Source: Escherichia phage N30. From it: a DNA stretch of 39,266 nucleotides. The DNA lies in the sequence record NC_048078.1. One strand, written 5' to 3'. Each line of letters begins with the position of its first letter. Positions within the stretch are counted from its first letter, which is position 1. Below the pieces are notes generated by a model. The model saw only the letters and a program-made list of their open reading frames with translations. It had not been told where the DNA came from and did not search any database. Below are positions 881 to 20,403 of this stretch, one piece after another. The translations under genes and the position numbers were made by a program.

Positions 881-900
881 ACACTATGAGGTAACACACA

Positions 901-1455: not shown

Positions 1456-1474
1456 TTGAATGGGAGTAATGCAC

Positions 1475-3125: not shown

Positions 3126-3131
3126 CACTAA

Positions 3132-5783
3132 ATGAACACGATTAACATCGCTAAGAACGACTTCTCTGACATCGAACTGGCTGCTATCCCGTTCAATACT
3201 CTGGCTGACCATTACGGTGAGCGTTTGGCTCGCGAACAGTTGGCCCTTGAGCATGAGTCTTACGAAATGGGTGAAGCACGATTCCGCAAGATGTTTGAGC
3301 GTCAACTTAAAGCTGGTGAGGTTGCGGATAACGCTGCCGCTAAGCCTCTCATTACTACCCTGCTCCCTAAGATGATTGCACGCATCAACGACTGGTTTGA
3401 GGAAGTGAAAGCTAAGCGCGGCAAACGCCCGACAGCCTTCCAGTTCCTGCAAGAAATCAAGCCGGAAGCGGTAGCGTACATCACCATTAAGACCACTCTG
3501 GCTTGCCTAACCAGTGCAGACAATACAACCGTTCAGGCTGTAGCAAGCGCAATCGGTCGAGCCATTGAGGATGAGGCTCGCTTCGGTCGCATCCGTGACC
3601 TTGAGGCCAAGCACTTCAAGAAAAACGTTGAGGAACAACTCAACAAGCGTGTAGGTCACGTCTACAAGAAAGCATTCATGCAGGTTGTCGAAGCGGACAT
3701 GCTCTCTAAGGGTCTACTCGGTGGCGAGGCGTGGTCTTCGTGGCATAAGGAAGACTCCATTCACGTAGGGGTTCGCTGCATTGAGATGCTCATTGAGTCA
3801 ACTGGAATGGTTAGCTTGCATCGTCAAAATGCTGGCGTAGTAGGTCAAGACTCTGAGACTATCGAACTCGCGCCAGAATACGCTGAGGCTATCGCAACCC
3901 GTGCAGGTGCGCTGGCTGGCATCTCTCCGATGTTCCAACCTTGCGTAGTTCCTCCTAAGCCGTGGACTGGTATTACTGGTGGCGGCTATTGGGCTAACGG
4001 TCGTCGTCCTCTGGCGCTGGTGCGCACTCACAGTAAGAAAGCACTGATGCGCTACGAAGATGTTTACATGCCTGAGGTGTACAAGGCGATTAACATTGCG
4101 CAAAACACCGCATGGAAAATCAACAAGAAAGTCCTAGCGGTCGCCAACGTAATCACCAAGTGGAAGCACTGCCCTGTAGAGGACATCCCTGCGATTGAAC
4201 GTGAAGAACTCCCGATGAAACCGGAAGACATCGACACGAATCCTGAGGCTCTCACCGCTTGGAAACGTGCTGCCGCTGCTGTGTACCGCAAGGACAAGGC
4301 TCGCAAGTCTCGCCGTATCAGCCTTGAGTTCATGCTTGAGCAAGCCAATAAGTTCGCTAACCATAAGGCCATCTGGTTCCCTTACAACATGGACTGGCGC
4401 GGTCGTGTTTACGCTGTGTCAATGTTCAACCCGCAAGGTAACGATATGACCAAAGGTCTGCTGACACTGGCGAAAGGTAAACCAATCGGTAAGGAAGGTT
4501 ACTACTGGTTGAAAATCCACGGTGCAAACTGTGCGGGTGTCGATAAGGTTCCGTTCCCTGAGCGCATCAAGTTCATTGAGGACAACCACGAGAACATCAT
4601 GGCTTGCGCTAAGTCTCCACTGGAGAACACTTGGTGGGCTGAGCAAGATTCTCCGTTCTGCTTCCTTGCGTTCTGCTTTGAGTACGCTGGGGTACAACAC
4701 CACGGCCTTAGCTACAACTGCTCTCTTCCGCTGGCGTTCGATGGGTCTTGCTCTGGTATTCAGCACTTCTCCGCGATGCTCCTTGACGAGATAGGTGGTC
4801 GTGCGGTTAACCTGCTGCCTAGTGAAACCGTTCAGGACATCTACGGGATTGTCGCTAAGAAAGTAAATGTGATTCTGCAAGAAGATGTAATCAACGGGAC
4901 AGACAACGAAGTAGTTACCGTGACCGATGAGAACACGGGTGAAATCTCTGAGAAAGTCAAGCTGGGCACCAAGGCTCTGGCTGGTCAATGGCTGGCCTAC
5001 GGTGTTACTCGCAGCGTGACTAAGCGTTCAGTCATGACGCTGGCTTACGGGTCCAAAGAGTTCGGCTTCCGTCAACAAGTGCTGGAAGATACCATTCAAC
5101 CAGCTATTGATTCCGGTAAGGGTCTAATGTTTACTCAACCGAATCAGGCTGCTGGGTACATGGCTAAACTGATTTGGGAAGCTGTGAGCGTCACGGTGGT
5201 GGCTGCGGTTGAAGCAATGAACTGGCTTAAGTCTGCCGCTAAGCTGCTGGCTGCTGAGGTCAAAGATAAGAAGACTGGAGAGATTCTTCGCAAGCGTTGC
5301 GCTGTGCATTGGGTAACTCCTGATGGCTTCCCTGTGTGGCAGGAATACAAGAAGCCCATTCAGACTCGCTTGAACCTGATGTTCCTCGGTCAGTTCCGCT
5401 TACAGCCAACCATTAACACTAACAAGGATAGCGAGATTGATGCACACAAACAGGAGTCCGGTATTGCCCCTAACTTTGTACACAGCCAAGACGGTAGCCA
5501 CCTACGTAAGACTGTAGTGTGGGCGCATGAGAAGTACGGAATCGAATCATTTGCGTTGATTCACGACTCCTTCGGGACAATTCCTGCTGATGCTGCCAAC
5601 TTATTCAAAGCTGTGCGCGAAACTATGGTTGACACCTATGAATCCTGTGATGTACTGGCTGACTTCTACGACCAGTTCGCTGACCAGTTGCACGAGTCTC
5701 AATTGGATAAAATGCCAGCACTTCCGGCTAAGGGTAACTTGAATCTCCAAGACATCCTTAAGTCAGACTTCGCGTTTGCGTAA
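3132..5783 (+). CDS. 1: Single-subunit DNA-dependent RNA polymerase (T7 RNAP type)
   Basis: 883 aa, MNTINIAKNDFSDIELAAIPFNTLADHYGERLAREQLALEHESYEMGEARFRKMFERQ...; near-identical to T7 RNAP along its length. Confidence 0.98.
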   Translation: MNTINIAKNDFSDIELAAIPFNTLADHYGERLAREQLALEHESYEMGEARFRKMFERQLKAGEVADNAAAKPLITTLLPKMIARINDWFEEVKAKRGKRPTAFQFLQEIKPEAVAYITIKTTLACLTSADNTTVQAVASAIGRAIEDEARFGRIRDLEAKHFKKNVEEQLNKRVGHVYKKAFMQVVEADMLSKGLLGGEAWSSWHKEDSIHVGVRCIEMLIESTGMVSLHRQNAGVVGQDSETIELAPEYAEAIATRAGALAGISPMFQPCVVPPKPWTGITGGGYWANGRRPLALVRTHSKKALMRYEDVYMPEVYKAINIAQNTAWKINKKVLAVANVITKWKHCPVEDIPAIEREELPMKPEDIDTNPEALTAWKRAAAAVYRKDKARKSRRISLEFMLEQANKFANHKAIWFPYNMDWRGRVYAVSMFNPQGNDMTKGLLTLAKGKPIGKEGYYWLKIHGANCAGVDKVPFPERIKFIEDNHENIMACAKSPLENTWWAEQDSPFCFLAFCFEYAGVQHHGLSYNCSLPLAFDGSCSGIQHFSAMLLDEIGGRAVNLLPSETVQDIYGIVAKKVNVILQEDVINGTDNEVVTVTDENTGEISEKVKLGTKALAGQWLAYGVTRSVTKRSVMTLAYGSKEFGFRQQVLEDTIQPAIDSGKGLMFTQPNQAAGYMAKLIWEAVSVTVVAAVEAMNWLKSAAKLLAAEVKDKKTGEILRKRCAVHWVTPDGFPVWQEYKKPIQTRLNLMFLGQFRLQPTINTNKDSEIDAHKQESGIAPNFVHSQDGSHLRKTVVWAHEKYGIESFALIHDSFGTIPADAANLFKAVRETMVDTYESCDVLADFYDQFADQLHESQLDKMPALPAKGNLNLQDILKSDFAFA

Positions 5784-5791
5784 CGTCAAAT

Positions 5792-5814
5792 CAATACGAC
5801 TCACTATAGAGGGA
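5792..5814 (+). promoter_or_regulatory. Phage promoter phi1.1A
   Basis: CAATACGACTCACTATAGAGGGA, +1 G at 5809. Confidence 0.85.
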
Positions 5815-5862
5815 CAAACTCAAGGTCACTTAATGAGTGGCCTTTATGATTGACCTTCCGGT
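5815..5862 (+). promoter_or_regulatory. RNase III site R1.1 (approximate)
   Basis: caaggtcacttaatgagtggcctttatgattgacc hairpin between phi1.1A and phi1.1B. Confidence 0.4.
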
Positions 5863-5885
5863 TAATACGACTCACTATAGGAGAA
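5863..5885 (+). promoter_or_regulatory. Phage promoter phi1.1B
   Basis: TAATACGACTCACTATAGGAGAA, +1 G at 5880. Confidence 0.9.
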
Positions 5886-5963
5886 CCTTAAGGTTTAACT
5901 TTAAGACCCTTAAGTGTTAATTAAAGATTTAAATTAAAGAATTACTAAGAGAGGACTTTAAGT

Positions 5964-6092
5964 ATGCGTAACTTCGAAAAGATGACCAAACGTTCTACCC
6001 GTAATGCTCATGACTTCGAGGTAACTAAAGGTCGCAAGTTGAATAAGACTAAGCGTGACCGTTCCCATAAGCGTAGCTGGGAGGGTCAGTAA
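5964..6092 (+). CDS. 1.1: gp1.1, small basic protein
   Basis: Hand-translated MRNFEKMTKRSTRNAHDFEVTKGRKLNKTKRDRSHKRSWEGQ (42 aa). Confidence 0.8.
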   Translation: MRNFEKMTKRSTRNAHDFEVTKGRKLNKTKRDRSHKRSWEGQ

Positions 6093-6093
6093 G

Positions 6094-6351
6094 ATGGGAC
6101 GTTTATACAGTGGGAACTTGAATGACCTCAAGGATGCTTGCAACAGGCTCTACCAGTTAGACTTTGCTGTTATTTGTGATGAATGGCACGATGCTTACAA
6201 ACGCCTTGCGTGTATGCGTCTACGCGTAGAGGACAGGGCTGGAAACCTGATTGATGTTAATACGTTCTGCCACCACGATGAAGACGTCTTGTACAATACG
6301 TGTACTGAATGGCTGAACCATATGTACGACCAGTTGAAGGACTGGAAGTAA
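6094..6351 (+). CDS. 1.2: gp1.2, inhibitor of host dGTPase
   Basis: MGRLYSGNLNDLKDACNRLYQLDFAVICDEWHDAYKRLACMRLRVEDRAGNLIDVNTFCHHDEDVLYNTCTEWLNHMYDQLKDWK (85 aa); internal Met of track ORF 6055..6351. Confidence 0.9.
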   Translation: MGRLYSGNLNDLKDACNRLYQLDFAVICDEWHDAYKRLACMRLRVEDRAGNLIDVNTFCHHDEDVLYNTCTEWLNHMYDQLKDWK

Positions 6352-6371
6352 TACGACTCAGTACAGGGACA
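6349..6371 (+). promoter_or_regulatory. Phage promoter phi1.3 (variant: G at -5, C at -2)
   Basis: TAATACGACTCAGTACAGGGACA, overlapping the gene 1.2 stop codon. Confidence 0.7.
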
Positions 6372-6410
6372 ATGCTTAAGGTCGCTCATTGAGTGGCCTT
6401 AGTCATTTAA
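6372..6410 (+). promoter_or_regulatory. RNase III site R1.3 (approximate)
   Basis: cttaaggtcgctcattgagtggccttag hairpin. Confidence 0.4.
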
Positions 6411-6429
6411 CCAATAGGAGATAAACATT

Positions 6430-7455
6430 ATGATGAACATTAAGACCAACCCATTCAAAGCCGTGTCTTTCGTAGAGTCTGCCATTAAGAAGGCTCTGGA
6501 TAACGCTGGGTATCTTATTGCTGACATTAAGTACGATGGTGTGCGTGGTAACATCTGCGTAGACAATACCGCTAACTGCTGCTGGCTCTCTCGTGTATCC
6601 AAACCGATTCCGGCACTGTCTTACCTTAATGGGTTCGACGCACGTTGGCAGCGTCTACTAAAGGATGACCGTTGCTTCTACCCTGATGGCTTCATGCTGG
6701 ATTGCGAACTTATGGTCAAGGGAGTGGACTTCAACACTGGCTCCGGCCTTCTGCGGACCAAGTGGCTCAACAAGAAGAACATGCAGTTCGATATTGGCGG
6801 TCCGTATGAATCGTGGGACGTGAGCCTGAAGGGACTTCCTTTCGGTATTGACCCGAACTTACTAACAGTTAAACTCTACGCTATCCTTCCGTACCACATT
6901 GTGGAATCTGGGGAAGACTGTGATGTCATGACGTTGCTCATGCAGGAACACGTTAAGAACATGCTGCCTCTGCTACAGGAATACTTTCCTGAAATCGAAT
7001 GGCAAGCGGCTGAGTCTTACGAGGTTTACGACATGGTAGAACTACAGCAACTGTACGAGAAGAAGCGTGAAGAAGGGCATGAGGGTCTCATTGTGAAAGA
7101 CCCTATGTGCATCTATAAGCGCGGTAAGAAGTCCGGCTGGTGGAAACTTAAGCCAGAGAATGAGGCTGACGGTATCATTCAGGGTCTTGTGTGGGGAACA
7201 GAAGGTTTAGCCAATGAAGGTAAAGTAATCGGATTTGAGGTGCTTCTTGAGAGTGGTCGTGTAGTTAATGCCACAAACATCTCTCGCACCTTAATGGATG
7301 AATTTACTAGCACAGTTAACATCGAAGGCGAAACCTACTACAACGGACACGCTTGTCAGATTGCGTACATGGAGGAAACACCTGATGGCTCTCTGCGTCA
7401 CCCATCGTTCGTAATGTTCCGTGGCACAGAGGACAACCCTCAAGAGAAAATGTAA
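6430..7455 (+). CDS. 1.3: ATP-dependent DNA ligase
   Basis: 341 aa; adenylation motif KYDGVRG near the N-terminus and a conserved C-terminus (MEETPDGSLRHPSFVMFRGTEDNPQEKM). Confidence 0.95.
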   Translation: MMNIKTNPFKAVSFVESAIKKALDNAGYLIADIKYDGVRGNICVDNTANCCWLSRVSKPIPALSYLNGFDARWQRLLKDDRCFYPDGFMLDCELMVKGVDFNTGSGLLRTKWLNKKNMQFDIGGPYESWDVSLKGLPFGIDPNLLTVKLYAILPYHIVESGEDCDVMTLLMQEHVKNMLPLLQEYFPEIEWQAAESYEVYDMVELQQLYEKKREEGHEGLIVKDPMCIYKRGKKSGWWKLKPENEADGIIQGLVWGTEGLANEGKVIGFEVLLESGRVVNATNISRTLMDEFTSTVNIEGETYYNGHACQIAYMEETPDGSLRHPSFVMFRGTEDNPQEKM

Positions 7456-7457
7456 CC

Positions 7458-7492
7458 ACACTGGCTCACCGAAAGGTGGGCCTTTCTGCGTT
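7458..7492 (+). terminator. Early transcription terminator TE (intrinsic)
   Basis: GC-rich hairpin GGCTCACC-GAAA-GGTGGGCC followed by TTTCTGCGTTT, immediately after the ligase stop. Confidence 0.8.
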
Positions 7493-7515
7493 TAATACGA
7501 CTCACTATAGGAGAT
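7493..7515 (+). promoter_or_regulatory. Phage promoter phi1.5
   Basis: TAATACGACTCACTATAGGAGAT, +1 G at 7510. Confidence 0.9.
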
Positions 7516-7522
7516 ACACCTT

Positions 7523-7615
7523 ATGATGTATTTAATGCCATTACTGATTATTATCATTGGATGTCTTGTGCTTCACTTTAAGGATGACGATGACATGCCC
7601 GATGGTCACGCTTAA
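7523..7615 (+). CDS. 1.5: gp1.5, small hydrophobic protein
   Basis: Hand-translated [30 protein letters not shown] (30 aa); stop overlaps phi1.6. Confidence 0.7.
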
Positions 7616-7635
7616 TACGACTCACTATAGGAGAC
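7613..7635 (+). promoter_or_regulatory. Phage promoter phi1.6
   Basis: TAATACGACTCACTATAGGAGAC, +1 G at 7630. Confidence 0.9.
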
Positions 7636-7640
7636 ACTAT

Positions 7641-7901
7641 ATGTTCCGACTTCACTTCAACAAAAGCCTTAAGAATTTCACGGTTCGCCGTGCTGACCGT
7701 TCAATCGTATGTGCGAGCGAACGCCGAGCTAAGTTACCTCTTATTGGTAATACAGTTCCTTTGGCACCGAGCGTCCACATCATTATCACTCGAGGTGACT
7801 TCGAGAAAGCAATAGACAAGAAACGTCCGGTTCTTAGCGTGGCAGTGACCCGCTTCCCGTTCGTCCGTCTGTTACTCAAACGAATCAAGGAGGTGTTCTG
7901 A
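7641..7901 (+). CDS. 1.6: gp1.6
   Basis: [41 protein letters not shown]... (86 aa); internal Met of track ORF 7557..7901, 11 nt after the phi1.6 start site. Confidence 0.85.
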
Positions 7902-8435
7902 TGTCTGGTTGCATAGCTTGCTTAGAGAAAGACGACCGTTATCCACATACCTGTAATAAAGGAGCTAACGATATGACCGAACGTGAACAAGAGATGATCA
8001 TTAAGTTGATAGACAACAACGAAGGTCGCCCAGATGATTTGAATGGCTGCGGACTTCTCTGCTCTAATGTCCCTTGTCACCTCTGCCCAGCAAATAACGA
8101 TCAAAAGATAACCTTAGGTGAAATCCGAGCGATGGACCCACGTAAGTCTAAGTCGGATAAACCAGAGGTAACTCCTACAGATGACCAACCTTCCACTGAG
8201 TCAATCGAAGGTGTCACGAAGCCATCTCATTACATGCTGTTCGACGACATTGAGGCTATCGAAGTGATTGCCCGTTCGATGACCCGTGAGCAGTTCAAAG
8301 GGTATTGCTTCGGGAACATCCTTAAGTACCGCCTACGTGCTGGTAAGAAATCCGAACTGGCTTACTTAGAGAAGGACATGGCGAAAGCTGGGTTCTACGG
8401 TGAACTGTACGAGAAACATAAGGATAAGTGCTACG

Positions 8436-8443
<8 letters not shown>
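7901..8443 (+). CDS. 1.7: gp1.7, nucleotide (dGMP/dTMP) kinase
   Basis: 180 aa, [51 protein letters not shown]...; start overlaps the 1.6 stop (TGATG). Confidence 0.9.
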
Positions 8444-8748
<305 letters not shown>

Positions 8749-8751
<3 letters not shown>

Positions 8752-8771
8752 TACGACTCACTATTGGGGAA
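8749..8771 (+). promoter_or_regulatory. Phage promoter phi2.5
   Basis: TAATACGACTCACTATTGGGGAA; T at -1, +1 G at 8766. Confidence 0.8.
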
Positions 8772-8816
8772 GACTCCCTCTGAGAAACTAAACGAAACCT
8801 AAAGGAGATTAACATT

Positions 8817-9515
8817 ATGGCTAAGAAGATTTTCACCTCTGCGCTGGGTACTGCTGAACCTTACGCTTACCTCTCTAAGCCGGACTACGGCAACGAAGAG
8901 CGTGGCTTTGGGAACCCTCGTGGTGTCTACAAAGTTGACCTGACTATTCCCAACAAAGACCCGCGCTGCCAGCGTATGGTCGATGAAATCGTGAAGTGCC
9001 ACGAAGAGGCTTATGCTGCTGCCGTTGAGGAATACGAAGCGAACCCGCCTGCTGTAGCTCGTGGTAAGAAACCACTGAAACCGTATGAAGGAGACATGCC
9101 GTTCTTCGATAACGGTGACGGTACGACTACCTTTAAGTTCAAATGCTACGCGTCTTTCCAAGACAAGAAGACCAAAGAGACCAAGCACATTAATCTGGTT
9201 GTGGTTGACTCCAAAGGTAAGAAGATGGAAGACGTTCCGATTATTGGTGGTGGTTCTAAACTGAAAGTCAAATACTCGCTGGTTCCGTACAAGTGGAACA
9301 CAGCTGTAGGTGCGAGCGTTAAGCTGCAACTGGAATCCGTAATGCTGGTCGAACTGGCTACCTTTGGTGGCGGTGAAGATGATTGGGCTGACGAAGTTGA
9401 AGAGAACGGCTATGTTGCCTCTGGTTCTGCCAAAGCGAGCAAACCACGCGACGAAGAAAGCTGGGACGAAGACGACGAAGGGTCCGAGGAAGCAGACGAA
9501 GACGGAGACTTCTAA
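8817..9515 (+). CDS. 2.5: Single-stranded DNA-binding protein (gp2.5)
   Basis: 232 aa with acidic C-terminal tail ending ...DEDDEGSEEADEDGDF. Confidence 0.97.
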   Translation: MAKKIFTSALGTAEPYAYLSKPDYGNEERGFGNPRGVYKVDLTIPNKDPRCQRMVDEIVKCHEEAYAAAVEEYEANPPAVARGKKPLKPYEGDMPFFDNGDGTTTFKFKCYASFQDKKTKETKHINLVVVDSKGKKMEDVPIIGGGSKLKVKYSLVPYKWNTAVGASVKLQLESVMLVELATFGGGEDDWADEVEENGYVASGSAKASKPRDEESWDEDDEGSEEADEDGDF

Positions 9516-9971
9516 GTGGCTGGCGCATACGCTGCGCGTGGTATCAGAAAGGTCGGGACATTCCGTTCCGGCCTAGAAGATAAGGTCTCTAAGCAGCTAG
9601 AGGGTAAGGGCATTAAGTTCGACTATGAACTGTGGAAAATCCCTTACGTTGTCCCTGCGAGCAACCATGTGTATACTCCAGACTTCCTGCTGCCTAACGG
9701 AATCTTTATTGAAACCAAAGGTTTATGGGAGAGTGACGACCGAAAGAAACACTTATTGATTCGCGAACAGTTTCCTGAACTGGACATCCGTCTGGTGTTC
9801 TCAAGTTCGCGCACCAAGCTGTACAAAGGGTCTCCGACCAGTTACGGTGAATGGTGCGAGAAGCACGGTATCCTGTTTGCTGACAAATTAATTCCTGTAG
9901 AATGGCTCAAAGAACCCAAAAAGGAGGTGCCATTTGACAAGCTGAAACAATCGAAGGGAGGAAAGAAATAA
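9516..9971 (+). CDS. 3: Endonuclease I (Holliday-junction resolvase, gp3)
   Basis: 151 aa (MAGAYAARGIRKVGTFRSGLEDKVSKQLEGKGIKFDYELWKIPYVVPASNHVYTPDFLLPNGIFIETKGLWESDDRKKHLLIRE...); GTG start directly after the 2.5 stop. Confidence 0.9.
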   Translation: MAGAYAARGIRKVGTFRSGLEDKVSKQLEGKGIKFDYELWKIPYVVPASNHVYTPDFLLPNGIFIETKGLWESDDRKKHLLIREQFPELDIRLVFSSSRTKLYKGSPTSYGEWCEKHGILFADKLIPVEWLKEPKKEVPFDKLKQSKGGKK

Positions 9972-10426
9972 TGGCTCGTGTACAGTTTAAACAACGTGAA
10001 TCTACTGACGCAATCTTTGTTCATTGCTCGGCTACCAAGCCAAGTCAGAATGTAGGTGTCCGTGAGATTCGCCAGTGGCATAAAGAGCAAGGTTGGCTTG
10101 ATGTCGGGTATCACTTTATCATCAAGCGCGATGGCACAGTAGAGGAAGGTCGAGATGAGATGGCTGTAGGCTCTCACGCTAAGGGTCACAACCACAACTC
10201 TATTGGTGTCTGCCTTGTAGGTGGTATCGACGATAAAGGCAAGTTTGACGCTAACTTTACGCCAGCCCAAATGCAATCCCTCCGCTCACTGCTTGTCACA
10301 CTGCTGGCTAAGTACGAAGGCGCTGTGCTTCGCGCACATCACGATGTGGCACCTAAGGCTTGCCCATCGTTCGACCTTAAGCGTTGGTGGGAGAAGAACG
10401 AACTGGTCACTTCTGACCGTGGATAA
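9971..10426 (+). CDS. 3.5: Lysozyme (N-acetylmuramoyl-L-alanine amidase, RNAP inhibitor; gp3.5)
   Basis: 151 aa, MARVQFKQRESTDAIFVHCSATKPSQNVGVREIRQWHKEQGWLDVGYHFIIKRDGTVEEGRDEMAVGSHAKGHNHNSIGVCLVGG... Confidence 0.97.
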   Translation: MARVQFKQRESTDAIFVHCSATKPSQNVGVREIRQWHKEQGWLDVGYHFIIKRDGTVEEGRDEMAVGSHAKGHNHNSIGVCLVGGIDDKGKFDANFTPAQMQSLRSLLVTLLAKYEGAVLRAHHDVAPKACPSFDLKRWWEKNELVTSDRG

Positions 10427-10427
10427 T

Positions 10428-10470
10428 TAATTGAACTCACTAAAGGGAGACCACAACGGTTTCCCTTTGT
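10428..10470 (+). promoter_or_regulatory. Phage promoter phi3.8-type with downstream leader hairpin
   Basis: TAATTGAACTCACTAAAGGGAGA (+1 G at 10445) followed by GGGAGACCACAACGGTTTCCC stem-loop. Confidence 0.8.
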
Positions 10471-10482
10471 TCGCATTGTTGA

Positions 10483-12201
<1,719 letters not shown>

Positions 12202-12218
12202 ATGATACGTGATGATAT

Positions 12219-12241
12219 TAATTAGACTCACTAAAGGAGGT
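12219..12241 (+). promoter_or_regulatory. Phage promoter (phi4.3-type)
   Basis: TAATTAGACTCACTAAAGGAGGT, +1 G at 12236; the AAAGGAGG doubles as the Shine-Dalgarno for the ATG at 12248. Confidence 0.7.
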
Positions 12242-12247
12242 AGCCAC

Positions 12248-12667
12248 ATGAGCACTGACTTAGAGAGACTTGAAAGATTCTTGAAGATTGAGGGCGATTG
12301 CTGGCTGTTCACTGGCGGCAAGTCACATGCCTACGGAGTGTTCTGGATGGGTGGTAAGAATCACAAGGCACATAGGGCTGCCTTCGAACTTTATAATGGG
12401 AGGAAACCTAATGGTGTTATATTACACTCTTGTGATAATCCTTTGTGCTGCAATCCCGCTCATCTATCTGAGGGAACTCAGCTTGATAATATGGTGGACA
12501 TGGTTAGAAAGGGACGCTCGTTAAAGGGTACGAAGAATCCCGCATGTAAGTTTACCGATGAGGATGTCAAGTTCATTCAGGAGTCTACCATGAAGGTCAA
12601 AGATTTAGCCACTCTATTCGGAGTGACGCGCCAAACAATAACCAGATGGAGGAAACACCATGTTTAA
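12248..12667 (+). CDS. HNH (homing-type) endonuclease with C-terminal helix-turn-helix-like tail
   Basis: 139 aa; HSCDNPLCCNPAHLSEGTQLDN matches the HNH H-x-CDNP-x-C-x-NP-x-HL pattern; clear paralogy with the ORF at 38108. The ATG at 12248 has a strong SD; the track start at 12209 lies inside the promoter. Confidence 0.85.
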   Translation: MSTDLERLERFLKIEGDCWLFTGGKSHAYGVFWMGGKNHKAHRAAFELYNGRKPNGVILHSCDNPLCCNPAHLSEGTQLDNMVDMVRKGRSLKGTKNPACKFTDEDVKFIQESTMKVKDLATLFGVTRQTITRWRKHHV

Positions 12668-12872
12668 ACTGATTAAGAAGTTGGGCAAACTGCTGGTTCG
12701 TTTGTATAACGTGGAAGCCAAGCGACTGAACGACGAGGCCCGTAATGAAGCCACACAGTCCCGCGCTCTGGCTATCCGCTCTAACGAACTGGCTGACAGC
12801 GCATCAAATAAAGTTACCGAGGCAGCTCGCGTAGCCAACCAAGCTCAACAACTTTCCAAATTCTTTGAGTAA
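12660..12872 (+). CDS. 4.3: gp4.3
   Basis: 70 aa, MFKLIKKLGKLLVRLYNVEAKRLNDEARNEATQSRALAIRSNELADSASNKVTEAARVANQAQQLSKFFE; start overlaps the HNH ORF end. Confidence 0.9.
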   Translation: MFKLIKKLGKLLVRLYNVEAKRLNDEARNEATQSRALAIRSNELADSASNKVTEAARVANQAQQLSKFFE

Positions 12873-12891
12873 TCAAACAGGAGAAACCATC

Positions 12892-13161
12892 ATGTCTAAC
12901 GTAGCTGAAACTATCCGTCTATCCGATACCGCTGACCAGTGGAACCGTCGAGTCCACATCAACGTTCGCAACGGTAAGGCGACTATGGTTTACCGCTGGA
13001 AGGACTCTAAGTCCTCTAAGAATCACACTCAGCGTATGACATTGACTGACGAGCAAGCACTGCGTCTGGTCAATGCGCTTACCAAAGCTGCCGTGACCGC
13101 AATTCATGAGGCTGGTCGCGTTGATGAAGCTATGGCTATCCTCGACAAGATTGACAGCTAA
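12892..13161 (+). CDS. 4.5: gp4.5 (Lon protease inhibitor in T7)
   Basis: MSNVAETIRLSDTADQWNRRVHINVRNGKATMVYRWKDSKSSKNHTQRMTLTDEQALRLVNALTK... (89 aa); internal ATG of track ORF 12865, with GGAGA upstream. Confidence 0.85.
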   Translation: MSNVAETIRLSDTADQWNRRVHINVRNGKATMVYRWKDSKSSKNHTQRMTLTDEQALRLVNALTKAAVTAIHEAGRVDEAMAILDKIDS

Positions 13162-13164
13162 GAG

Positions 13165-13205
13165 TGGTATGCTCAAGGTCGCCCAAGCGGTGGCCTTCAT
13201 GAATA
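13165..13205 (+). promoter_or_regulatory. RNase III site R4.7 (approximate)
   Basis: gctcaaggtcgcccaagcggtggccttcatga hairpin. Confidence 0.4.
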
Positions 13206-13228
13206 CTATTCGACTCACTATAGGAGAT
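13206..13228 (+). promoter_or_regulatory. Phage promoter phi4.7
   Basis: TACTATTCGACTCACTATAGGAGA, +1 G at 13223. Confidence 0.8.
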
Positions 13229-13234
13229 ATGACC

Positions 13235-13642
13235 ATGCGTGACCCTAAAGTTATCCAAGCAGAAATCGCTAAACTGGAAGCTGAACTTGAGGACGTTAAG
13301 TACCATGAAGCCAAGACTCGCTCCGCTGTTCACATTTTGAAGAACTTAGGGTGGACTTGGACACGACAGACTGGCTGGAAGAAGCCGGAAGTTTACAAGT
13401 TGAGCCACAAGGTGTTCGATAAGGACACTATGACCCACATCAAGGCTGGTGATTGGGTTAAGGTTGACATGGGAGTTGTTGGTGGGTACGGCTATGTCCG
13501 CTCAGTGAGTGGCAAATACGCACAAGTGTCATACATCACTGGCGTTACTCCGCGAGGAGCAATCGTTGCAGACAAGACCAACATGATTCACACAGGCTTC
13601 TTGACAGTTGTCTCGTATGAAGAGATTGTTAAGTCACGATAA
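13235..13642 (+). CDS. 4.7: gp4.7
   Basis: MRDPKVIQAEIAKLEAELEDVKYHEAKTRSAVHILKNLGWTWTRQTGWKKPEVYKLSHKVF... (135 aa); internal Met of track ORF 13106. Confidence 0.85.
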   Translation: MRDPKVIQAEIAKLEAELEDVKYHEAKTRSAVHILKNLGWTWTRQTGWKKPEVYKLSHKVFDKDTMTHIKAGDWVKVDMGVVGGYGYVRSVSGKYAQVSYITGVTPRGAIVADKTNMIHTGFLTVVSYEEIVKSR

Positions 13643-13660
13643 TCAATAGGAGAAATCAAT

Positions 13661-15775
13661 ATGATCGTTTCTGACATCGAAGCTAACGCCCTCTTAGAGA
13701 GCGTCACTAAGTTCCACTGCGGGGTTATCTACGACTACTCCACCGCTGAGTACGTAAGCTACCGTCCGAGTGACTTCGGTGCGTATCTGGATGCGCTGGA
13801 AGCCGAGGTTGCACGAGGCGGTCTTATTGTGTTCCACAACGGTCACAAGTATGACGTTCCCGCATTGACCAAACTGGCAAAGCTACAATTGAACCGAGAG
13901 TTCCACCTTCCTCGTGAGAACTGTATCGACACCCTTGTGCTGTCACGCTTGATTCACTCTAACCTAAAGGACACCGATATGGGTCTTCTGCGTTCCGGTA
14001 AACTGCCTGGGAAACGCTTTGGGTCTCACGCTCTGGAGGCGTGGGGTTATCGCTTAGGAGAGATGAAGGGTGAATACAAGGATGACTTTAAGCGTATGCT
14101 TGAAGAGCAAGGTGAAGAATACGTTGACGGAATGGAGTGGTGGAACTTCAACGAAGAGATGATGGACTATAACGTTCAGGACGTTGTTGTCACTAAGGCT
14201 CTCCTTGAGAAGCTACTCTCTGACAAACATTACTTCCCTCCTGAGATTGACTTTACGGACGTAGGTTACACTACGTTCTGGTCAGAATCCCTTGAGGCCG
14301 TTGATGTTGAACATCGCGCTGCATGGCTACTCGCTAAGCAAGAGCGCAATGGATTCCCGTTTGACACTAAAGCAATCGAAGAGTTGTACGTAGAGTTAGC
14401 TGCTCGACGCTCTGAGTTGCTCCGTAAATTGACCGAAACGTTCGGCTCGTGGTATCAGCCTAAAGGTGGCACAGAAATGTTCTGCCATCCGAGGACTGGT
14501 AAGCCATTGCCTAAATACCCTCGCATTAAGACACCTAAAGTTGGTGGTATCTTTAAGAAGCCTAAGAACAAGGCACAGCGAGAAGGCCGTGAGCCTTGCG
14601 AACTGGATACCCGCGAGTACGTTGCTGGTGCTCCGTATACTCCAGTTGAGCACGTAGTGTTTAACCCTTCGTCTCGTGACCACATCCAGAAGAAACTCCA
14701 AGAGGCTGGATGGGTCCCAACCAAGTACACCGATAAGGGCGCTCCTGTGGTGGACGATGAGGTACTCGAAGGAGTGCGTGTGGATGACCCTGAGAAGCAA
14801 GCTGCTATCGACCTCATTAAAGAATACTTGATGATTCAGAAGAGAATCGGACAGTCCGCTGAGGGAGACAAGGCTTGGCTTCGCTATGTTGCCGAGGACG
14901 GTAAGATTCATGGTTCTGTTAACCCTAATGGAGCAGTTACGGGTCGTGCTACCCATGCGTTCCCCAACCTTGCGCAAATTCCGGGTGTACGTTCTCCTTA
15001 TGGAGAGCAGTGTCGCGCTGCTTTTGGCGCTGAGCACCATTTGGATGGGATAACTGGTAAGCCTTGGGTGCAGGCAGGTATCGACGCATCCGGTCTGGAG
15101 CTACGCTGCTTGGCTCACTTCATGGCTCGCTTTGATAACGGCGAGTACGCTCACGAGATTCTTAATGGTGACATTCACACTAAGAACCAGATGGCTGCTG
15201 AATTGCCTACCCGTGATAACGCTAAGACGTTCATCTATGGGTTCCTTTATGGGGCTGGCGATGAGAAGATTGGGCAGATTGTCGGTGCTGGTAAAGAGCG
15301 CGGTAAGGAACTCAAGAAGAAATTCCTTGAGAACACCCCTGCGATTGCAGCACTACGTGAGTCTATCCAACAGACCCTTGTTGAGTCCTCTCAGTGGGTG
15401 GCTGGTGAACAGCAAGTCAAGTGGAAACGCCGCTGGATTAAAGGTCTGGATGGTCGTAAGGTACACGTCCGTAGTCCTCACGCTGCCTTGAATACCCTAC
15501 TACAATCTGCTGGTGCTCTCATCTGCAAACTGTGGATTATCAAGACCGAAGAGATGCTCGTAGAGAAAGGCTTGAAGCACGGCTGGGATGGGGACTTTGC
15601 GTACATGGCATGGGTACATGATGAAATCCAAGTAGGTTGCCGTACCGAAGAGATTGCTCAGGTTGTCATTGAGACAGCACAAGAAGCAATGCGCTGGGTT
15701 GGAGACCACTGGAACTTCCGGTGTCTTCTGGATACCGAAGGTAAGATGGGTCCTAATTGGGCCGTATGTCACTAA
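13661..15775 (+). CDS. 5: DNA polymerase (family A, thioredoxin-binding type)
   Basis: 704 aa, [76 protein letters not shown]... Confidence 0.98.
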
Positions 15776-15794
15776 TTCTATAGGAGAAATTATT

Positions 15795-16091
15795 ATGGCT
15801 ATCACGAAGAAATTTAAAGTGTCCTTTGATGTTACCCTTAAGCTGGACAGCGAGACCGAAGAACTTATGCGAGAAAAGATTCTGGACTTAGCTCATCGTG
15901 CTGGCGCTGGTGAGGAGATTGGTCCTATGGACCGAGAGTTGTTAGTTCAGGCCCTGACACGCGGCCCAGATGGTGCTGCTGCATTTGCTGTACGACAAGG
16001 TATCCGTAATGCTGTCAAGGAGATGTTCGAAGATTCTAGTGATAAAGCACTGTTCAAACAGTCTCCTGCAACTGTACGGGAGGTGTTCTGA
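15795..16091 (+). CDS. 5.5: gp5.5 (H-NS-binding protein in T7)
   Basis: MAITKKFKVSFDVTLKLDSETEELMREKILDL...FKQSPATVREVF (98 aa); internal Met of track ORF 15654, with GGAGA upstream. Confidence 0.85.
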   Translation: MAITKKFKVSFDVTLKLDSETEELMREKILDLAHRAGAGEEIGPMDRELLVQALTRGPDGAAAFAVRQGIRNAVKEMFEDSSDKALFKQSPATVREVF

Positions 16092-16300
16092 TGTCTGACT
16101 ATCTGAAAGTGCTGCAAGCAATCAAAGGTTGCCCTAAGACTTTCCAGTCCAACTATGTACGGAACAACGCGAGCCTCGTAGCGGAGGCCGCTTCCCGTGG
16201 TCACATCTCATGTCTGACTACAAGCGGACGAAACGGTGGTGCTTGGGAAATCACTGCTTCTGGTACTCGCTTTCTGAAACGAATGGGAGGGTGTGTCTGA
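16091..16300 (+). CDS. 5.7: gp5.7
   Basis: 69 aa, MSDYLKVLQAIKGCPKTFQSNYVRNNASLVAEAASRGHISCLTTSGRNGGAWEITASGTRFLKRMGGCV. Confidence 0.9.
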   Translation: MSDYLKVLQAIKGCPKTFQSNYVRNNASLVAEAASRGHISCLTTSGRNGGAWEITASGTRFLKRMGGCV

Positions 16301-16458
16301 TGGTGCGTGACACTGTAACAATTCCTCGTGATGCGTGGAACGATATGCAGGGTTATATTGATTCTCTGGAACGTGAGAACGATAGCCTTAAGAACCAACT
16401 TATGGAAGCTGACGAATACGTGGCTGAGCTAGAGGAGAAACTTAATGGCGCTTCTTGA
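16300..16458 (+). CDS. 5.9: gp5.9 (RecBCD inhibitor in T7)
   Basis: MVRDTVTIPRDAWNDMQGYIDSLERENDSLKNQLMEADEYVAELEEKLNGAS (52 aa); ATG overlaps the 5.7 stop. Confidence 0.85.
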   Translation: MVRDTVTIPRDAWNDMQGYIDSLERENDSLKNQLMEADEYVAELEEKLNGAS

Positions 16459-17347
16459 CCTTAAACAATTCTACGAGTTACGTGAAGGCTGTAACGACAA
16501 GGGTATCCTTGTGATGGATGGTGACTGGCTGGTCTTCCAAGCTATGAGTGCTGCCGAGTTTGATGCCTCTTGGGAGGAAGAGATTTGGCACCGCTGCTGC
16601 GACCACGCTAAGGCCCGTAAGATTCTGGATGATTCCATCAAGTCCTATGAGACCCGTAAGAAGGCTTGGGTAGGTGCTCCGATTGTCCTTGCGTTCACAG
16701 ATAGTGTCAACTGGCGTAAAGAACTGGTGGACCCGAACTACAAGGCTAACCGTAAGGCCACGAAGAAACCTGTAGGTTACTTTGAGTTCCTTGATGCTCT
16801 CTTTGAGCGTGAAGAGTTCTACTGCATTCGTGAGCCTATGCTTGAGGGAGATGACGTTATGGGAGTGATTGCTTCCAATCCGTCTGCCTTCGGTGCCCGT
16901 AAGGCGGTAATCATCTCGTGTGATAAGGACTTCAAGACCATCCCTAACTGTGACTTCTTGTGGTGTACCACTGGTAACATCCTGACTCAGACCGAAGAGT
17001 CCGCTGACTGGTGGCACCTATTCCAGACAATCAAGGGTGATATTACCGATGGTTACTCAGGGATTGCCGGATGGGGTGATACCGCTGAGGACTTCTTGAA
17101 TAACCCGTTCATTACCGAGCCTAAGACCTCTGTGCTTAAGTCTGGTAAGAACAAAGGGCAGGAGGTAACTAAGTGGGTTAAACGCGACCCTGAGCCTCAT
17201 GAGACGCTTTGGGACTGCATTAAGTCCATTGGTGCGAAGGCTGGTATGACCGAAGAGGATGTCATCAAGCAGGGCCAAATGGCTCGCATCCTACGGTTCA
17301 ATGAGTACAACTTTATTGACAAGGAGATTTACCTGTGGAGACCGTAG
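16445..17347 (+). CDS. 6: 5'-3' exonuclease (gp6)
   Basis: 300 aa, MALLDLKQFYELREGCNDKGILVMDGDWLVFQAMSAAEFDASWEEEIWHRCCDHAKARK... Confidence 0.97.
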   Translation: MALLDLKQFYELREGCNDKGILVMDGDWLVFQAMSAAEFDASWEEEIWHRCCDHAKARKILDDSIKSYETRKKAWVGAPIVLAFTDSVNWRKELVDPNYKANRKATKKPVGYFEFLDALFEREEFYCIREPMLEGDDVMGVIASNPSAFGARKAVIISCDKDFKTIPNCDFLWCTTGNILTQTEESADWWHLFQTIKGDITDGYSGIAGWGDTAEDFLNNPFITEPKTSVLKSGKNKGQEVTKWVKRDPEPHETLWDCIKSIGAKAGMTEEDVIKQGQMARILRFNEYNFIDKEIYLWRP

Positions 17348-17448
17348 CGTATATTGGCATTGGTCTTTGTGTCCTCGGAATTGGCCTCATTGCGTGGGGC
17401 CTTTGGGACTTAGCCCGAATAATCAAGTCCTTACACGACACTAAGTGA
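17335..17448 (+). CDS. 6.3: gp6.3, small hydrophobic protein
   Basis: Hand-translated GTG-initiated 37-aa ORF (V/M)ETVAYIGIGLCVLGIGLIAWGLWDLARIIKSLHDTK, overlapping the gene 6 end by 13 nt as in T7. Confidence 0.55.
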   Translation: METVAYIGIGLCVLGIGLIAWGLWDLARIIKSLHDTK

Positions 17449-17468
17449 TAAACTCAAGGTCCCTAAAT

Positions 17469-17491
17469 TAATACGACTCACTATAGGGAGA
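17469..17491 (+). promoter_or_regulatory. Phage class III promoter phi6.5 (inside RNase III hairpin R6.5)
   Basis: TAATACGACTCACTATAGGGAGA, +1 G at 17486; flanked by ctcaaggtccc ... ggggcctttatga. Confidence 0.9.
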
Positions 17492-17545
17492 TAGGGGCCT
17501 TTATGATTATTACTTTAAGATTTAACTCTAAGAGGAATCTTTATC

Positions 17546-17800
17546 ATGTTAACACCTATTAGCCAATTACTTAAGAACCCTAACGATATTCCAGACGTGC
17601 CTCGTGCAACCGCTGAGTATCTACAGGTTCGATTCAACCATGCGTATCTCGAAGCGTCTGGTCATATAGGATTTATGCGTGCTAGTGGTTGTAGTGAAGC
17701 CCACATCTTGGGTTTCATTCAGGGCCTACAGTATGCCTCTAACATCATTGACGAGATTGAGTTGCGCAAGGAACAACTAAGAGAAGATGGGGAGGATTGA
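17546..17800 (+). CDS. 6.5: gp6.5
   Basis: 84 aa, [48 protein letters not shown]... Confidence 0.9.
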
Positions 17801-17804
17801 CCTT

Positions 17805-18071
17805 ATGTGTTTCTCACCGAAAGTTAAAGTTCCGAAGATGGATACCAATCAGATTCGAGCCGTTGAGCCAGCGCCACTGACACAAGAAGTGTCAAGCGTG
17901 GAGTTCGGTGGGTCTTCTGATGAGACGGATACCGAAGGCACCGAAGTGTCTGGACGCAAAGACCTCAAGGTCGAACGCGATGATTCCGTAGCGAAGTCTA
18001 AAGCCGCTGGCACTGGCTCCGCTCGTATGAAATCTTCAATCCGTAAGTCTGCATTCGGAGGTAAGAAGTAA
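17805..18071 (+). CDS. 6.7: gp6.7, virion protein
   Basis: MCFSPKVKVPKMDTNQIRAVEPAPLTQEVSSVEFGG...SIRKSAFGGKK (88 aa); internal ATG of track ORF 17787, with GGGGAGGA upstream. Confidence 0.8.
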   Translation: MCFSPKVKVPKMDTNQIRAVEPAPLTQEVSSVEFGGSSDETDTEGTEVSGRKDLKVERDDSVAKSKAAGTGSARMKSSIRKSAFGGKK

Positions 18072-18472
18072 TGCCTGAGTTCACATGTGTGGAAGCCAAA
18101 AGCCGCTTCCGTGCAATCCGGTGGACTGTAGAGCACCTTGGGTTGCCTAAGGGATTCGAAGGACACTTTATTGGTTACAGCCTCTACGTTGACGAAGTTA
18201 TGGACATGTCTGGTTGTCGTGAAGAGTACATTCTGGACTCTACCGGAAAACATGTAGCGTACTTCGCGTGGTGCGTAAGCTGTGACATTCACCACAAGGG
18301 AGACATTCTGGACGTTACGTCAGTTGTCATTAATCCAGAGGCAGACTCTAAAGGCTTACAGCGATTCTTAGCGAAACGCTTTAAGTACCTTGCAGAACTC
18401 CACGATTGCGATTGGGTGTCCCGCTGCAAACATGAAGGCGAGACAATGCGTGTATACTTTAAGGAGGTATAA
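18071..18472 (+). CDS. 7: gp7, host-range/virion protein
   Basis: 133 aa, MPEFTCVEAKSRFRAIRWTVEHLGLPKGFEGHFIGYSLYVDEVMDMSGCREEY... Confidence 0.9.
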   Translation: MPEFTCVEAKSRFRAIRWTVEHLGLPKGFEGHFIGYSLYVDEVMDMSGCREEYILDSTGKHVAYFAWCVSCDIHHKGDILDVTSVVINPEADSKGLQRFLAKRFKYLAELHDCDWVSRCKHEGETMRVYFKEV

Positions 18473-18475
18473 GTT

Positions 18476-18778
18476 ATGGGTAAGAAAATTAAGAAGGCCG
18501 TGAAGAAAGTCACTAAGTCCGTTAAGAAAGTCGTTAAGGAAGTGGCCCGTCCGGTTAAACAGGTTGCCAGTGGTCTGGCTGGCGGTGCAGGTGAAGCACA
18601 AGTAGTGGAAGTACCACAAGCTGCTGCAACTCCTGCTGCACAGATTGTTGATGTACCTGAGAAAGAGGTTTCCACTGAGGACGAAGCACAGACCGAAAGC
18701 GGACGCAAGAAAGCCCGTGCTGGTGGTAAGAAGTCCTTAAGTGTTGCCCGTAGCTCCGGTGGCGGCATCAATATTTAA
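18476..18778 (+). CDS. 7.3: gp7.3, tail/adsorption protein
   Basis: 100 aa, Lys-rich N-terminus MGKKIKKAVKKVTKSVKKVVKEVARPVKQ... Confidence 0.9.
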   Translation: MGKKIKKAVKKVTKSVKKVVKEVARPVKQVASGLAGGAGEAQVVEVPQAAATPAAQIVDVPEKEVSTEDEAQTESGRKKARAGGKKSLSVARSSGGGINI

Positions 18779-18792
18779 TCAGGAGGTGACAC

Positions 18793-20403
18793 ATGGCTGA
18801 GAAGCGTACAGGTCTAGCCGAGGAAGGTGCAAAGTCGGTCTATGAGCGATTAAAGAATGACCGCGCTCCTTATGAGACTCGTGCTCAAAACTGCGCTCAG
18901 TACACCATTCCGTCCCTCTTCCCTAAGGATTCCGATAACTCATCCACAGACTACACAACTCCGTGGCAAGCTGTGGGTGCTCGCGGTCTCAATAACTTGG
19001 CCTCTAAGCTCATGCTGGCTCTCTTCCCGATGCAAACGTGGATGAAACTAACCATCTCTGAGTTCGAGGCCAAACAGTTACTGAATGACCCCGATGGACT
19101 CGCTAAGGTCGATGAGGGTCTCTCAATGGTAGAGCGCATCATTATGAACTACATTGAGTCTAACAGCTACCGAGTGACTCTCTTTGAGGCTCTCAAACAG
19201 TTAGTCGTAGCGGGTAATGTCCTGCTGTACCTACCGGAACCGGAAGGGTCAAACTATAATCCCATGAAGCTGTACCGATTGTCTTCTTATGTGGTCCAAC
19301 GAGACGCATTCGGCAACGTTCTGCAAATGGTGACTCGTGACCAAATAGCTTTCGGTGCTCTCCCTGAGGACATCCGTAAGGCTGTAGAAGGTCAAGGTGG
19401 TGAGAAGAAAGCTGATGAGACCATCGACGTGTACACTCACATCTATCTGGATGAGGACTCAGGTGAATACCTCCGGTACGAAGAGGTCGAGGGTATGGAA
19501 GTTCAAGGCTCCGATGGGTCTTACCCTAAAGAGGCTTGCCCATACATCCCGATTCGAATGGTTCGGCTTGACGGTGAATCCTATGGTCGTTCGTACATTG
19601 AGGAATATTTAGGCGACTTACGGTCACTTGAGAATCTCCAAGAGGCCATCGTTAAGATGTCAATGATTAGCTCTAAGGTTATCGGCTTAGTGAATCCTGC
19701 TGGTATCACCCAGCCACGCCGACTGACCAAAGCTCAGACTGGTGACTTCGTTACTGGTCGCCCAGAAGACATCTCGTTCCTCCAACTGGAGAAGCAAGCA
19801 GACTTTACCGTAGCCAAGGCTGTCAGTGACGCTATTGAGGCTCGCCTTTCGTTTGCCTTTATGTTGAACTCTGCTGTTCAGCGCACAGGTGAACGAGTGA
19901 CCGCCGAAGAGATTCGGTATGTCGCTTCTGAACTTGAAGATACTTTAGGTGGTGTCTACTCAATCCTTTCTCAAGAATTACAATTGCCTCTGGTACGAGT
20001 GCTCTTGAAGCAACTACAAGCCACGCAACAGATTCCTGAGTTACCTAAGGAAGCCGTAGAGCCAACCATTAGTACAGGTCTGGAAGCAATCGGTCGTGGT
20101 CAAGACCTTGATAAGCTGGAGCGGTGTGTCACTGCGTGGGCTGCTCTAGCACCGATGCGTGATGACCCTGACATCAACCTTGCGATGATTAAGTTGCGCA
20201 TTGCGAACGCTATTGGTATTGACACTTCTGGTATTCTACTCACCGAAGAACAGAAGCAACAGAAGATGGCCCAACAGTCTATGCAAATGGGTATGGATAA
20301 TGGTGCTGCTGCTCTGGCTCAAGGTATGGCTGCACAAGCTACAGCTTCACCTGAGGCTATGGCTGCTGCCGCTGATTCCGTAGGTTTACAGCCGGGAATT
20401 TAA
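18793..20403 (+). CDS. 8: Portal (head-tail connector) protein
   Basis: 536 aa, MAEKRTGLAEEGAKSVYERLKNDRAPYETRAQNCAQYTIPSLFPKDSDNSSTDYTTPWQAVGARG... Confidence 0.97.
   Translation: MAEKRTGLAEEGAKSVYERLKNDRAPYETRAQNCAQYTIPSLFPKDSDNSSTDYTTPWQAVGARGLNNLASKLMLALFPMQTWMKLTISEFEAKQLLNDPDGLAKVDEGLSMVERIIMNYIESNSYRVTLFEALKQLVVAGNVLLYLPEPEGSNYNPMKLYRLSSYVVQRDAFGNVLQMVTRDQIAFGALPEDIRKAVEGQGGEKKADETIDVYTHIYLDEDSGEYLRYEEVEGMEVQGSDGSYPKEACPYIPIRMVRLDGESYGRSYIEEYLGDLRSLENLQEAIVKMSMISSKVIGLVNPAGITQPRRLTKAQTGDFVTGRPEDISFLQLEKQADFTVAKAVSDAIEARLSFAFMLNSAVQRTGERVTAEEIRYVASELEDTLGGVYSILSQELQLPLVRVLLKQLQATQQIPELPKEAVEPTISTGLEAIGRGQDLDKLERCVTAWAALAPMRDDPDINLAMIKLRIANAIGIDTSGILLTEEQKQQKMAQQSMQMGMDNGAAALAQGMAAQATASPEAMAAAADSVGLQPGI

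Follow-up and report, generated by a model that had tools for sequence, protein, structure and literature searches.

Why does a small HNH endonuclease open reading frame (ORF) stand between the primase/helicase gene 4 and gene 4.3 of a T7-like coliphage, and how did it come to be there? The window analysed here, meaning the whole 39,266-nt stretch of DNA, is the genome of Escherichia phage N30 (NC_048078.1), a member of the genus Teseptimavirus, with the gene order gp2.5, gp3, gp3.5, gp4, gp4.3, gp4.5, gp4.7 and gp5 around the HNH locus. The initial annotation had read the ORF as a free-standing homing endonuclease gene, and this reading gained support from the sporadic presence of the gene, from intact empty sites and from a pair of filled and empty loci. 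It is indeed quite probable that the ORF is a free-standing homing-endonuclease gene of the HNH/His-Me-finger class, a paralogue of T7 gene 2.8, and that it belongs to a lineage specialised for the interval 3' of the primase/helicase gene in T7-like phages.

No entry of the phage collection matches the window exactly. With Escherichia phage C5 (NC_048079) it shares 99% identity over 707-18796 and 100% over 1.5 kb round the HNH locus, but only ~90% in the structural region, and whole-gene differences separate the two genomes. We therefore rejected the idea that the window is phage C5 itself, given that the 99% identity covers only 707-18796 with ~90% elsewhere; judged from these alignments, it is a mosaic relative of C5. 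Compared with C5, the window lacks gene 7.7 and carries an extra HNH gene after gene 19. The C5 gp7.7 HNH endonuclease gene (NC_048079 19134-19526) is precisely absent at a window junction at about 18793-18796, up to which identity remains 99%. The extra gene is a second HNH_3 paralogue (38108-38551, plus strand, 147 aa, 44% identical to the first over aa 15-95) that sits just 3' of the large terminase gene 19 (36310-38070); it is missing in C5 and occurs in 27 of 183 related records, some of which label it 'HNH endonuclease'. Two of three HNH loci thus differ between these near-identical phages.

All features of the locus lie on the plus strand. Gene 4 (10498-12201), a 567-aa primase/helicase in the ORF list whose 99% identical C5 counterpart is annotated as DNA primase/helicase, ends with TAA at 12199-12201. 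It is followed by a 17-nt spacer (12202-12218), several positions of which differ from the spacer of HNH-less phages, and by a 23-bp phi4.3-type T7 RNA polymerase promoter, TAATTAGACTCACTAAAGGAGGT (12219-12241, -17 to +6, with +1 at G12236), collinear with the annotated T7 phi4.3. The 139-aa HNH ORF reported between gene 4 and gene 4.3 is present in the sequence, where it extends from ATG 12248 to TAA 12665-12667 (12248-12667) and contains HSCDNPLCCNPAHLSEGTQLDN. Its length had been given correctly, but not its start: position 12209 is merely the mechanical GTG of a 152-aa open frame, which we rejected as a start codon because it has no Shine-Dalgarno sequence and would run through the promoter. 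The ATG at 12212 used by the C5 RefSeq record was rejected on the same two grounds and because this ATG is not conserved in phage Q5 (GTGACG). The annotated C5 CDS (NC_048079 12544-12999, equivalent to window 12212-12667) spans the phi4.3 promoter and has no ribosome-binding site; the records of Q5, JB01 and Bas102 start at the equivalent of window 12248. The Shine-Dalgarno sequence of the HNH gene is GGAGG at 12236-12240, 7 nt 5' of its ATG, as the initial annotation had recognised; rather than lying downstream of the promoter, it consists of the promoter's own +1 to +5. The homologous GGAG serves gene 4.3 in insert-free phages. The cassette is the first cistron of the phi4.3 transcript and captures the Shine-Dalgarno sequence embedded in the promoter.

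The fit at the 3' end is equally close. The HNH ORF runs 8 nt into gene 4.3 (12660-12872; 70 aa; DUF5471, Pfam E 9e-47), and the overlap of its last codons with the gene 4.3 ATG at 12660 proved to be as first described, the bases common to both genes being ATGTTTAA. Having no stop codon of its own, the HNH gene uses an out-of-frame TAA from gene 4.3 codons 2-3 (TT[TAA]A), and its codons W-R-K supply a replacement GGAGG (12648-12652), 7 nt before ATG 12660, so that the last codons of the cassette rebuild the Shine-Dalgarno sequence of gene 4.3 as GGAGG-AAACACC-ATG. The GGAAACA motif is also found in Berlinvirus homologues and therefore belongs to the HNH coding sequence. Because the stop is borrowed out of frame within gene 4.3, the arrangement indicates that downstream expression would be kept by translational coupling. 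In homologues whose gene 4.3 opens with ATGTTC, not ATGTTT, the HNH frame reads on to GATTAA and encodes 140-142 aa. In the window and in the homologues of L003-L006 and L079, a synonymous TTT/TTC change in gene 4.3 codon 2 hence alters the HNH C-terminus, which ends in ...HHV in the window versus ...HHVQTD in Q5 and JB01. No sigma-70 promoter was found in the region, and terminator-like matches were at chance level only and on the opposite strand.

The assignment to the HNH class rests on several profile searches. The protein matched Pfam HNH_3 (PF13392) with 46.3 bits against a gathering cut-off of 24.8 bits (E 3.2e-12), aa 40-83 covering profile positions 2-46 of 46, so that the HNH family match on which the first reading had been made to depend was found; PF13392 is also precomputed on all close homologues. 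PHROG endonuclease/HNH families matched as well (best E 2e-29). Below threshold, Pfam returned zf-His_Me_endon and a cluster of helix-turn-helix (HTH) families at aa 108-137, and an NCBIfam search gave only sub-threshold HTH matches. In an alignment of 61 homologous sequences, H60, C62, D63, C67, H72 and N81 were invariant, and C18, H42, N64, N69 and others were at least 90% conserved. The AlphaFold model (pLDDT 90.8) comprises a beta-rich N-terminal part and then a beta-beta-alpha unit (strands 57-60 and 73-76, helix 78-88), the beta-beta-alpha-metal fold of HNH/His-Me fingers being present in this predicted structure; beyond the core follow a linker and three short helices within 104-135. 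Pfam, the alignment and the predicted secondary structure together define the catalytic core (aa 40-83; 12365-12496), and the helices form a predicted C-terminal three-helix HTH module (aa 104-135; 12557-12652). By analogy, H60 at the end of strand 1 would be the catalytic histidine and N81 in the helix the metal-ligand asparagine. The top Foldseek match, I-HmuI, was non-significant (E 0.066), and a PDB sequence search returned noise only (Spire, and one HNH entry at E 0.15). We conclude that the protein is predicted to combine a His-Me-finger nuclease domain, bearing a Cys/His metal cluster, with a C-terminal HTH, a standard layout among small phage HNH homing endonucleases.

The gene has a GC content of 45.0%, compared with 48-50% in its neighbours. 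Relative to homologues, dN/dS was 0.06-0.26, also where dS exceeded 2, and all ten of the ten copies compared were intact; on these ratios, the HNH gene is under purifying selection. Together with the Pfam HNH_3 and PHROG matches, they indicate that the ORF is not due to chance. Strong purifying selection over deep divergence (dN/dS 0.06-0.10 at dS above 2) would also be expected of a domesticated, beneficial nuclease directed against competing phages (exclusion), host DNA or intermediates of replication or recombination, and whose position simply reflects the DNA-metabolism module; the gene is constantly found in the class II replication module beside gene 4, and HNH genes resembling homing endonuclease genes can be co-opted, as exemplified by HK97 gp74 (PMC10448857). 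We nevertheless regard domestication as improbable, since a prevalence of ~1-3% among close relatives is hard to square with a useful core function, and since two phages that are 99% identical here differ in other HNH genes, which is the pattern of mobile elements. Nor would it exclude homing, since a homing endonuclease by its nature cuts competitors.

Evidence for the favoured reading, that of a homing endonuclease gene, came from the comparison of filled and empty sites. A megablast search with window 11700-13200 as the query matched 243 phage records, and the ORF is carried by only six of these from five phages, namely C5 (two records), AH67C600_Q5, JB01, vB_EcoP_LNA7 and MeretOppenheim_Bas102; the gene is thus far from universal at this locus, and the ancestral, universal presence that the initial annotation had named as contrary evidence was not what we found. 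Among the matches listed, the non-carriers aligned in two pieces with a record span of 1085-1088 nt, which means that ~415 nt are missing in HNH-less records. We compared 16 insert-free loci, including T7, phiA1122, HZ2R8, WX1 and IMG/VR contigs. The empty junction, CACTAAAGGAG-ACACACC-ATG (in general form CACTAAAGGAG-ACAC(A)(C/T)C-ATGTT), was near-identical and intact in 16 of 16 loci, reading ...GACTCACTAAAGGAG-ACAC(A)(C/T)C-ATGTT(T/C)AAACTG. The carrier junctions read ...GACTCACTAAAGGAG-(G/A/C)TA(G/A)CCAC-ATG...HNH...TGGAGGA(A/G)ACA(C/T)C-ATGTT, and the insert is bounded by a short GGAG...ACAC(C) repeat. Aligning the window with T7 and its relatives, the check proposed at the outset for defining the insertion boundaries, places the ~415-nt cassette between the Shine-Dalgarno GGAG embedded in phi4.3 and the start codon of gene 4.3. 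The initial annotation gave T7 only a promoter and a short leader here; the short promoter-to-4.3 leader (GGAGACACACC) is indeed what T7 has, but the interval itself is 86 nt long and includes the tail of gene 4.2. JB01 and an IMG/VR locus (L072) form a filled/empty pair that has in common an unusual long left spacer after gene 4, and the insert is found as well in phages with the short spacer, a background of which many empty examples exist. Presence or absence at one locus with an intact empty site, as seen here, is the polymorphism characteristic of a free-standing homing endonuclease gene.

The cassette is also discordant with its flanks. When the window is compared with Q5 or JB01, identity is 98% in the HNH gene, 89-95% in the adjacent 500 nt of gene 4 and 89-91% in gene 4.3; the group B alleles of LNA7 and Bas102 show no such excess of similarity to the window over that of their flanks. 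A 60-nt sliding nearest-neighbour comparison was used to locate the breakpoints. Upstream to roughly 12130, the nearest neighbour of the window is the HNH-less phage WX1 (100%). From ~12130 to the HNH gene, the nearest sequences are those of HNH carriers only, identity to HNH-less phages being 0.71-0.77, and from the first base of gene 4.3 (12660) onward they are again HNH-less phages, of the HZ2R8 type (0.95-0.97). These switches delimit a co-inherited block at ~12130-12659 that comprises the last ~70 nt of gene 4 (12130-12201, encoding the acidic C-terminal tail, a haplotype co-inherited with the HNH gene), the spacer, the promoter and the HNH gene, with no linked block to the right of the HNH gene. 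The boundaries of the HNH gene coincide with the recombination breakpoints deduced in this way, and an element discordant with its flanks and attached to a linked tract is what a homing endonuclease gene is expected to present. Both the discordance and the linked tract may be due to co-conversion, although shared ancestry of the cassette could instead account for the left linked block.

Homologues of at least 70% identity all adjoin gene 4 on its 3' side, whether in Teseptimavirus, in Berlinvirus or in metagenomic T7-like contigs; this locus-faithful set comprises the five GenBank carrier phages, the Berlinviruses Kvp1 (a Kluyvera phage) and pO103 (an Escherichia phage), and the contigs L074-L079. 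Three fine arrangements were distinguished. In arrangement (a), gene 4, promoter, HNH gene and gene 4.3 follow one another. In arrangement (b), the HNH gene already starts within the 3' end of gene 4, and its stop codon makes up positions -14 to -12 of the next promoter. In arrangement (c), the HNH gene occupies the entire interval from gene 4 to gene 4.3, which contains no recognisable promoter. Of 224 Berlinvirus-type records, 3 contain a homologue of ~70% identity (two records of Kvp1, and pO103). In a more distant T7-like contig (L074, ENA ERZ27257833; region 2449-3031), a 77%-identical homologue follows a diverged promoter-like TAATACTACTCGCTTATAGGAAG; gene 4.3 is not called there, and only a 105-nt gap precedes gene 4.5.

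The presence of 70-77%-identical homologues after gene 4 in different genera shows that the lineage is old at this locus, as would be expected if the gene were ancestral there and had been lost repeatedly, the HNH-less state being derived; L072 could likewise be a deletion derivative of a JB01-like phage. This scenario would, however, require many independent, base-precise deletions, each recreating one and the same leader, GGAGACACACC-ATG, which 16 of 16 empty loci have despite their divergent backgrounds, and no HNH remnants were seen at the empty sites. Moreover, the HNH gene has diverged less between backgrounds than its flanks have (98% versus 89-95% identity), the phylogenetic breakpoints coincide with the cassette ends, and the three different fine arrangements argue for separate insertions. 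Repeated loss of an ancestral gene is therefore very unlikely.

Other observations mark the module from gene 3.5 to gene 5 as a hot spot for HNH genes. A Logan contig (L076, SRR15674886) has three HNH_3 genes, located before gene 4, after gene 4 and before gene 5, and in Yersinia phage WX1 an 'endonuclease' CDS separates gene 4.5 from gene 5. In Bas102, the DNA polymerase CDS is annotated as a join of two pieces that extends over 2716 nt, suggesting that gene 5 is interrupted by an intervening element.

The promoter in front of the HNH gene, which we identified as phi4.3 because it is a 23-bp T7 RNA polymerase promoter at the homologous position, has T at -13 and A at -12, where T7 phi4.3 has AC; these are the two positions at which it differs from T7. 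Other promoters in the window read TAATACGACTCACTA, and five match the consensus exactly (TAATACGACTCACTATAGGGAGA). The window's phi4.3 reads TAATTAGACTC..., compared with TAATACGACTC in its other promoters. Besides the window, we found -13T/-12A in C5, LNA7, Bas102 and L079, HNH carriers without exception; it is missing in the carriers Q5 and JB01 and in 16 of 16 HNH-less loci. A scan of IMG/VR for exact matches to the -13T/-12A promoter returned C5 only. In Kvp1 and pO103, the promoter beside the HNH gene reads AAGACTCAC, compared with AGAACTCAC for phi4A. We considered whether a T7-type promoter fragment had travelled with the gene into the Berlinviruses and dropped this as evidence, since there the HNH stop codon supplies the -12A as its final base, and class II promoters are variable in any case.

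The -13T/-12A variant adjacent to the gene in most carriers, the predicted C-terminal HTH, and the fact that in arrangements (a) and (b) a phage promoter adjoins or overlaps the gene could together be taken to indicate a nuclease-dead HTH regulator, derived from an HNH enzyme and acting on the neighbouring promoter. Such a regulator would be expected to have lost its catalytic residues, whereas H60, N81 and the Cys/His cluster are invariant in the 61 homologues, and in arrangement (c) there is no promoter beside the gene; we regard this as the most improbable of the explanations considered. Instead, the phi4.3 transcript of a small minority of T7-group phages has as its first cistron a functional-looking gene for the HNH and HTH modules.

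If the gene is a homing endonuclease gene, as we prefer, its spread might proceed as follows. During mixed infection, the enzyme would nick or cut an HNH-less allele near the locus, and recombinational repair would transfer a copy of the gene to the recipient, along with the stretch that separates it from the cut. Since linkage extends leftward only and ends exactly at the 3' end of the HNH gene, the cut would most likely fall not at the insertion point but in the conserved 3' end of gene 4 or in the spacer. Protection of the carrier would come from the divergent sequence of its own gene 4 tail, which would act as an immune allele. Cleavage at a distance with copying of flanking DNA is a known behaviour of free-standing phage endonuclease genes. 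Alternatively, it is possible that the enzyme cleaves at the insertion point and that the insert disrupts its site. The flanks give no unambiguous target: L072 has a JB01-like gene 4 tail without the HNH gene, so that no single flanking polymorphism is fully diagnostic, and this locus fits either a resistant allele left behind after loss of the element or the ancestral background. We therefore put forward only tentatively, as a proposal with perhaps less chance of being right than wrong by some distance, that the target is the conserved 3' end of the helicase gene, encoding the acidic gp4 C-terminal tail, rather than the element's own insertion point, and that homing drags along a resistant, divergent gp4 tail (instead of ...GEEESHSESTDWSNDTDF) and the variant -13T/-12A phi4.3 promoter. 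In T7, the acidic C-terminal tail of gp4 contacts the DNA polymerase.

The identical gene of C5 is annotated 'putative HNH endonuclease', and relatives are variously labelled 'HNH endonuclease' (C5, Bas102), 'Gp2.8/Gp7.7 HNH motif protein' (Q5) and 'gene 2.8' (Kvp1). The closest named relative is T7 gp2.8, with ~43-46% identity over 89-93% of the protein and a similar size, tblastn matches in T7 records covering residues 8-136 of the 139-aa query. T7 gene 2.8 likewise has an HNH_3 core and is free-standing in the class II region of a T7-like genome, but its locus differs: the T7 match lies ~4 kb upstream of the gene 4/4.3 interval, at the site that separates genes 2.5 and 3 in T7. This site is empty in the window, where gp2.5 (8817-9515) is followed immediately by gp3 (9516-9971). 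We therefore rejected orthology with T7 gene 2.8, given an identity of only ~44% and a position between genes 4 and 4.3; the adjacency of gp2.5 and gp3 together with that position points to a paralogue with its own insertion site. The Berlinvirus homologues, the Kvp1 'gene 2.8' and its pO103 counterpart, are closer (~70% amino acid identity) and likewise lie immediately 3' of gene 4; unlike the window gene, which is downstream of its promoter, they are inserted upstream of a promoter and have their start codon inside the 3' end of gene 4. Kvp1 lacks genes 4.3 and 4.5. In the pO103 record (OR204651), an intact 147-aa HNH homologue at 2474-2917 is unannotated, and just a 40-aa 'hypothetical protein' is called at 2795-2917. 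The Kvp1 genome paper merely lists '4.7-2.8' as a region of dissimilarity (PMC2579914), and our literature search found no paper on this HNH lineage, this locus or the activity of the enzyme.

Among characterised enzymes, I-HmuI of phage SPO1 (PDB 1u3e) is larger (174 versus 139 aa) and only 16-18% identical in sequence. Both I-HmuI and I-TslI of the T7-like phages PhiI/W31 (PMC3428280) reside in group I introns of DNA polymerase genes, whereas the window gene is intergenic, and the window protein further differs from this type by its Cys/His cluster with the sub-threshold Pfam zf-His_Me_endon match. An intron-encoded enzyme of the I-HmuI/I-TslI type was rejected because the gene is intergenic, genes 4 and 4.3 are intact, and neither an intron nor another structured RNA matched any Rfam family at threshold in 11800-13300. 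The free-standing homing endonuclease genes of T4-like phages and ICP1 (seg, mob, HNH-3) are more alike in setting, being intergenic, sporadic and situated beside conserved essential genes, and they mark recombination boundaries between related phages (PMC10448857). The asymmetric linked flank in the window is the expected product of cleavage at a distance with co-conversion. The enzymes of T4-like phages and ICP1 belong to different nuclease subfamilies or have different DNA-binding modules; the window gene, known from its sequence, differs also in lying between a phage RNA polymerase promoter and the first cistron of that promoter.

Taken together, the locus is an ordinary kind of phage insertion, already annotated as an HNH endonuclease; it is a tidy, unsurprising example whose practical value is modest and which leaves current understanding unchallenged. 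It explains two annotation discrepancies, the C5 RefSeq start that runs through the promoter and the intact but unannotated pO103 gene. Should the enzyme be active and its site be mapped, it would add another small (139-aa) rare-cutting or nicking HNH enzyme. For the T7 group, whose members serve phage engineering and therapy, the HNH gene marks a recombination boundary in the replication module, and T7 genetics would offer a compact and readily tested system in which to study how free-standing homing endonuclease genes are accommodated with expression left intact. If the gp4 tail does prove to be the target, a selfish element would be driving allele replacement at a replisome contact and retuning a phage promoter.
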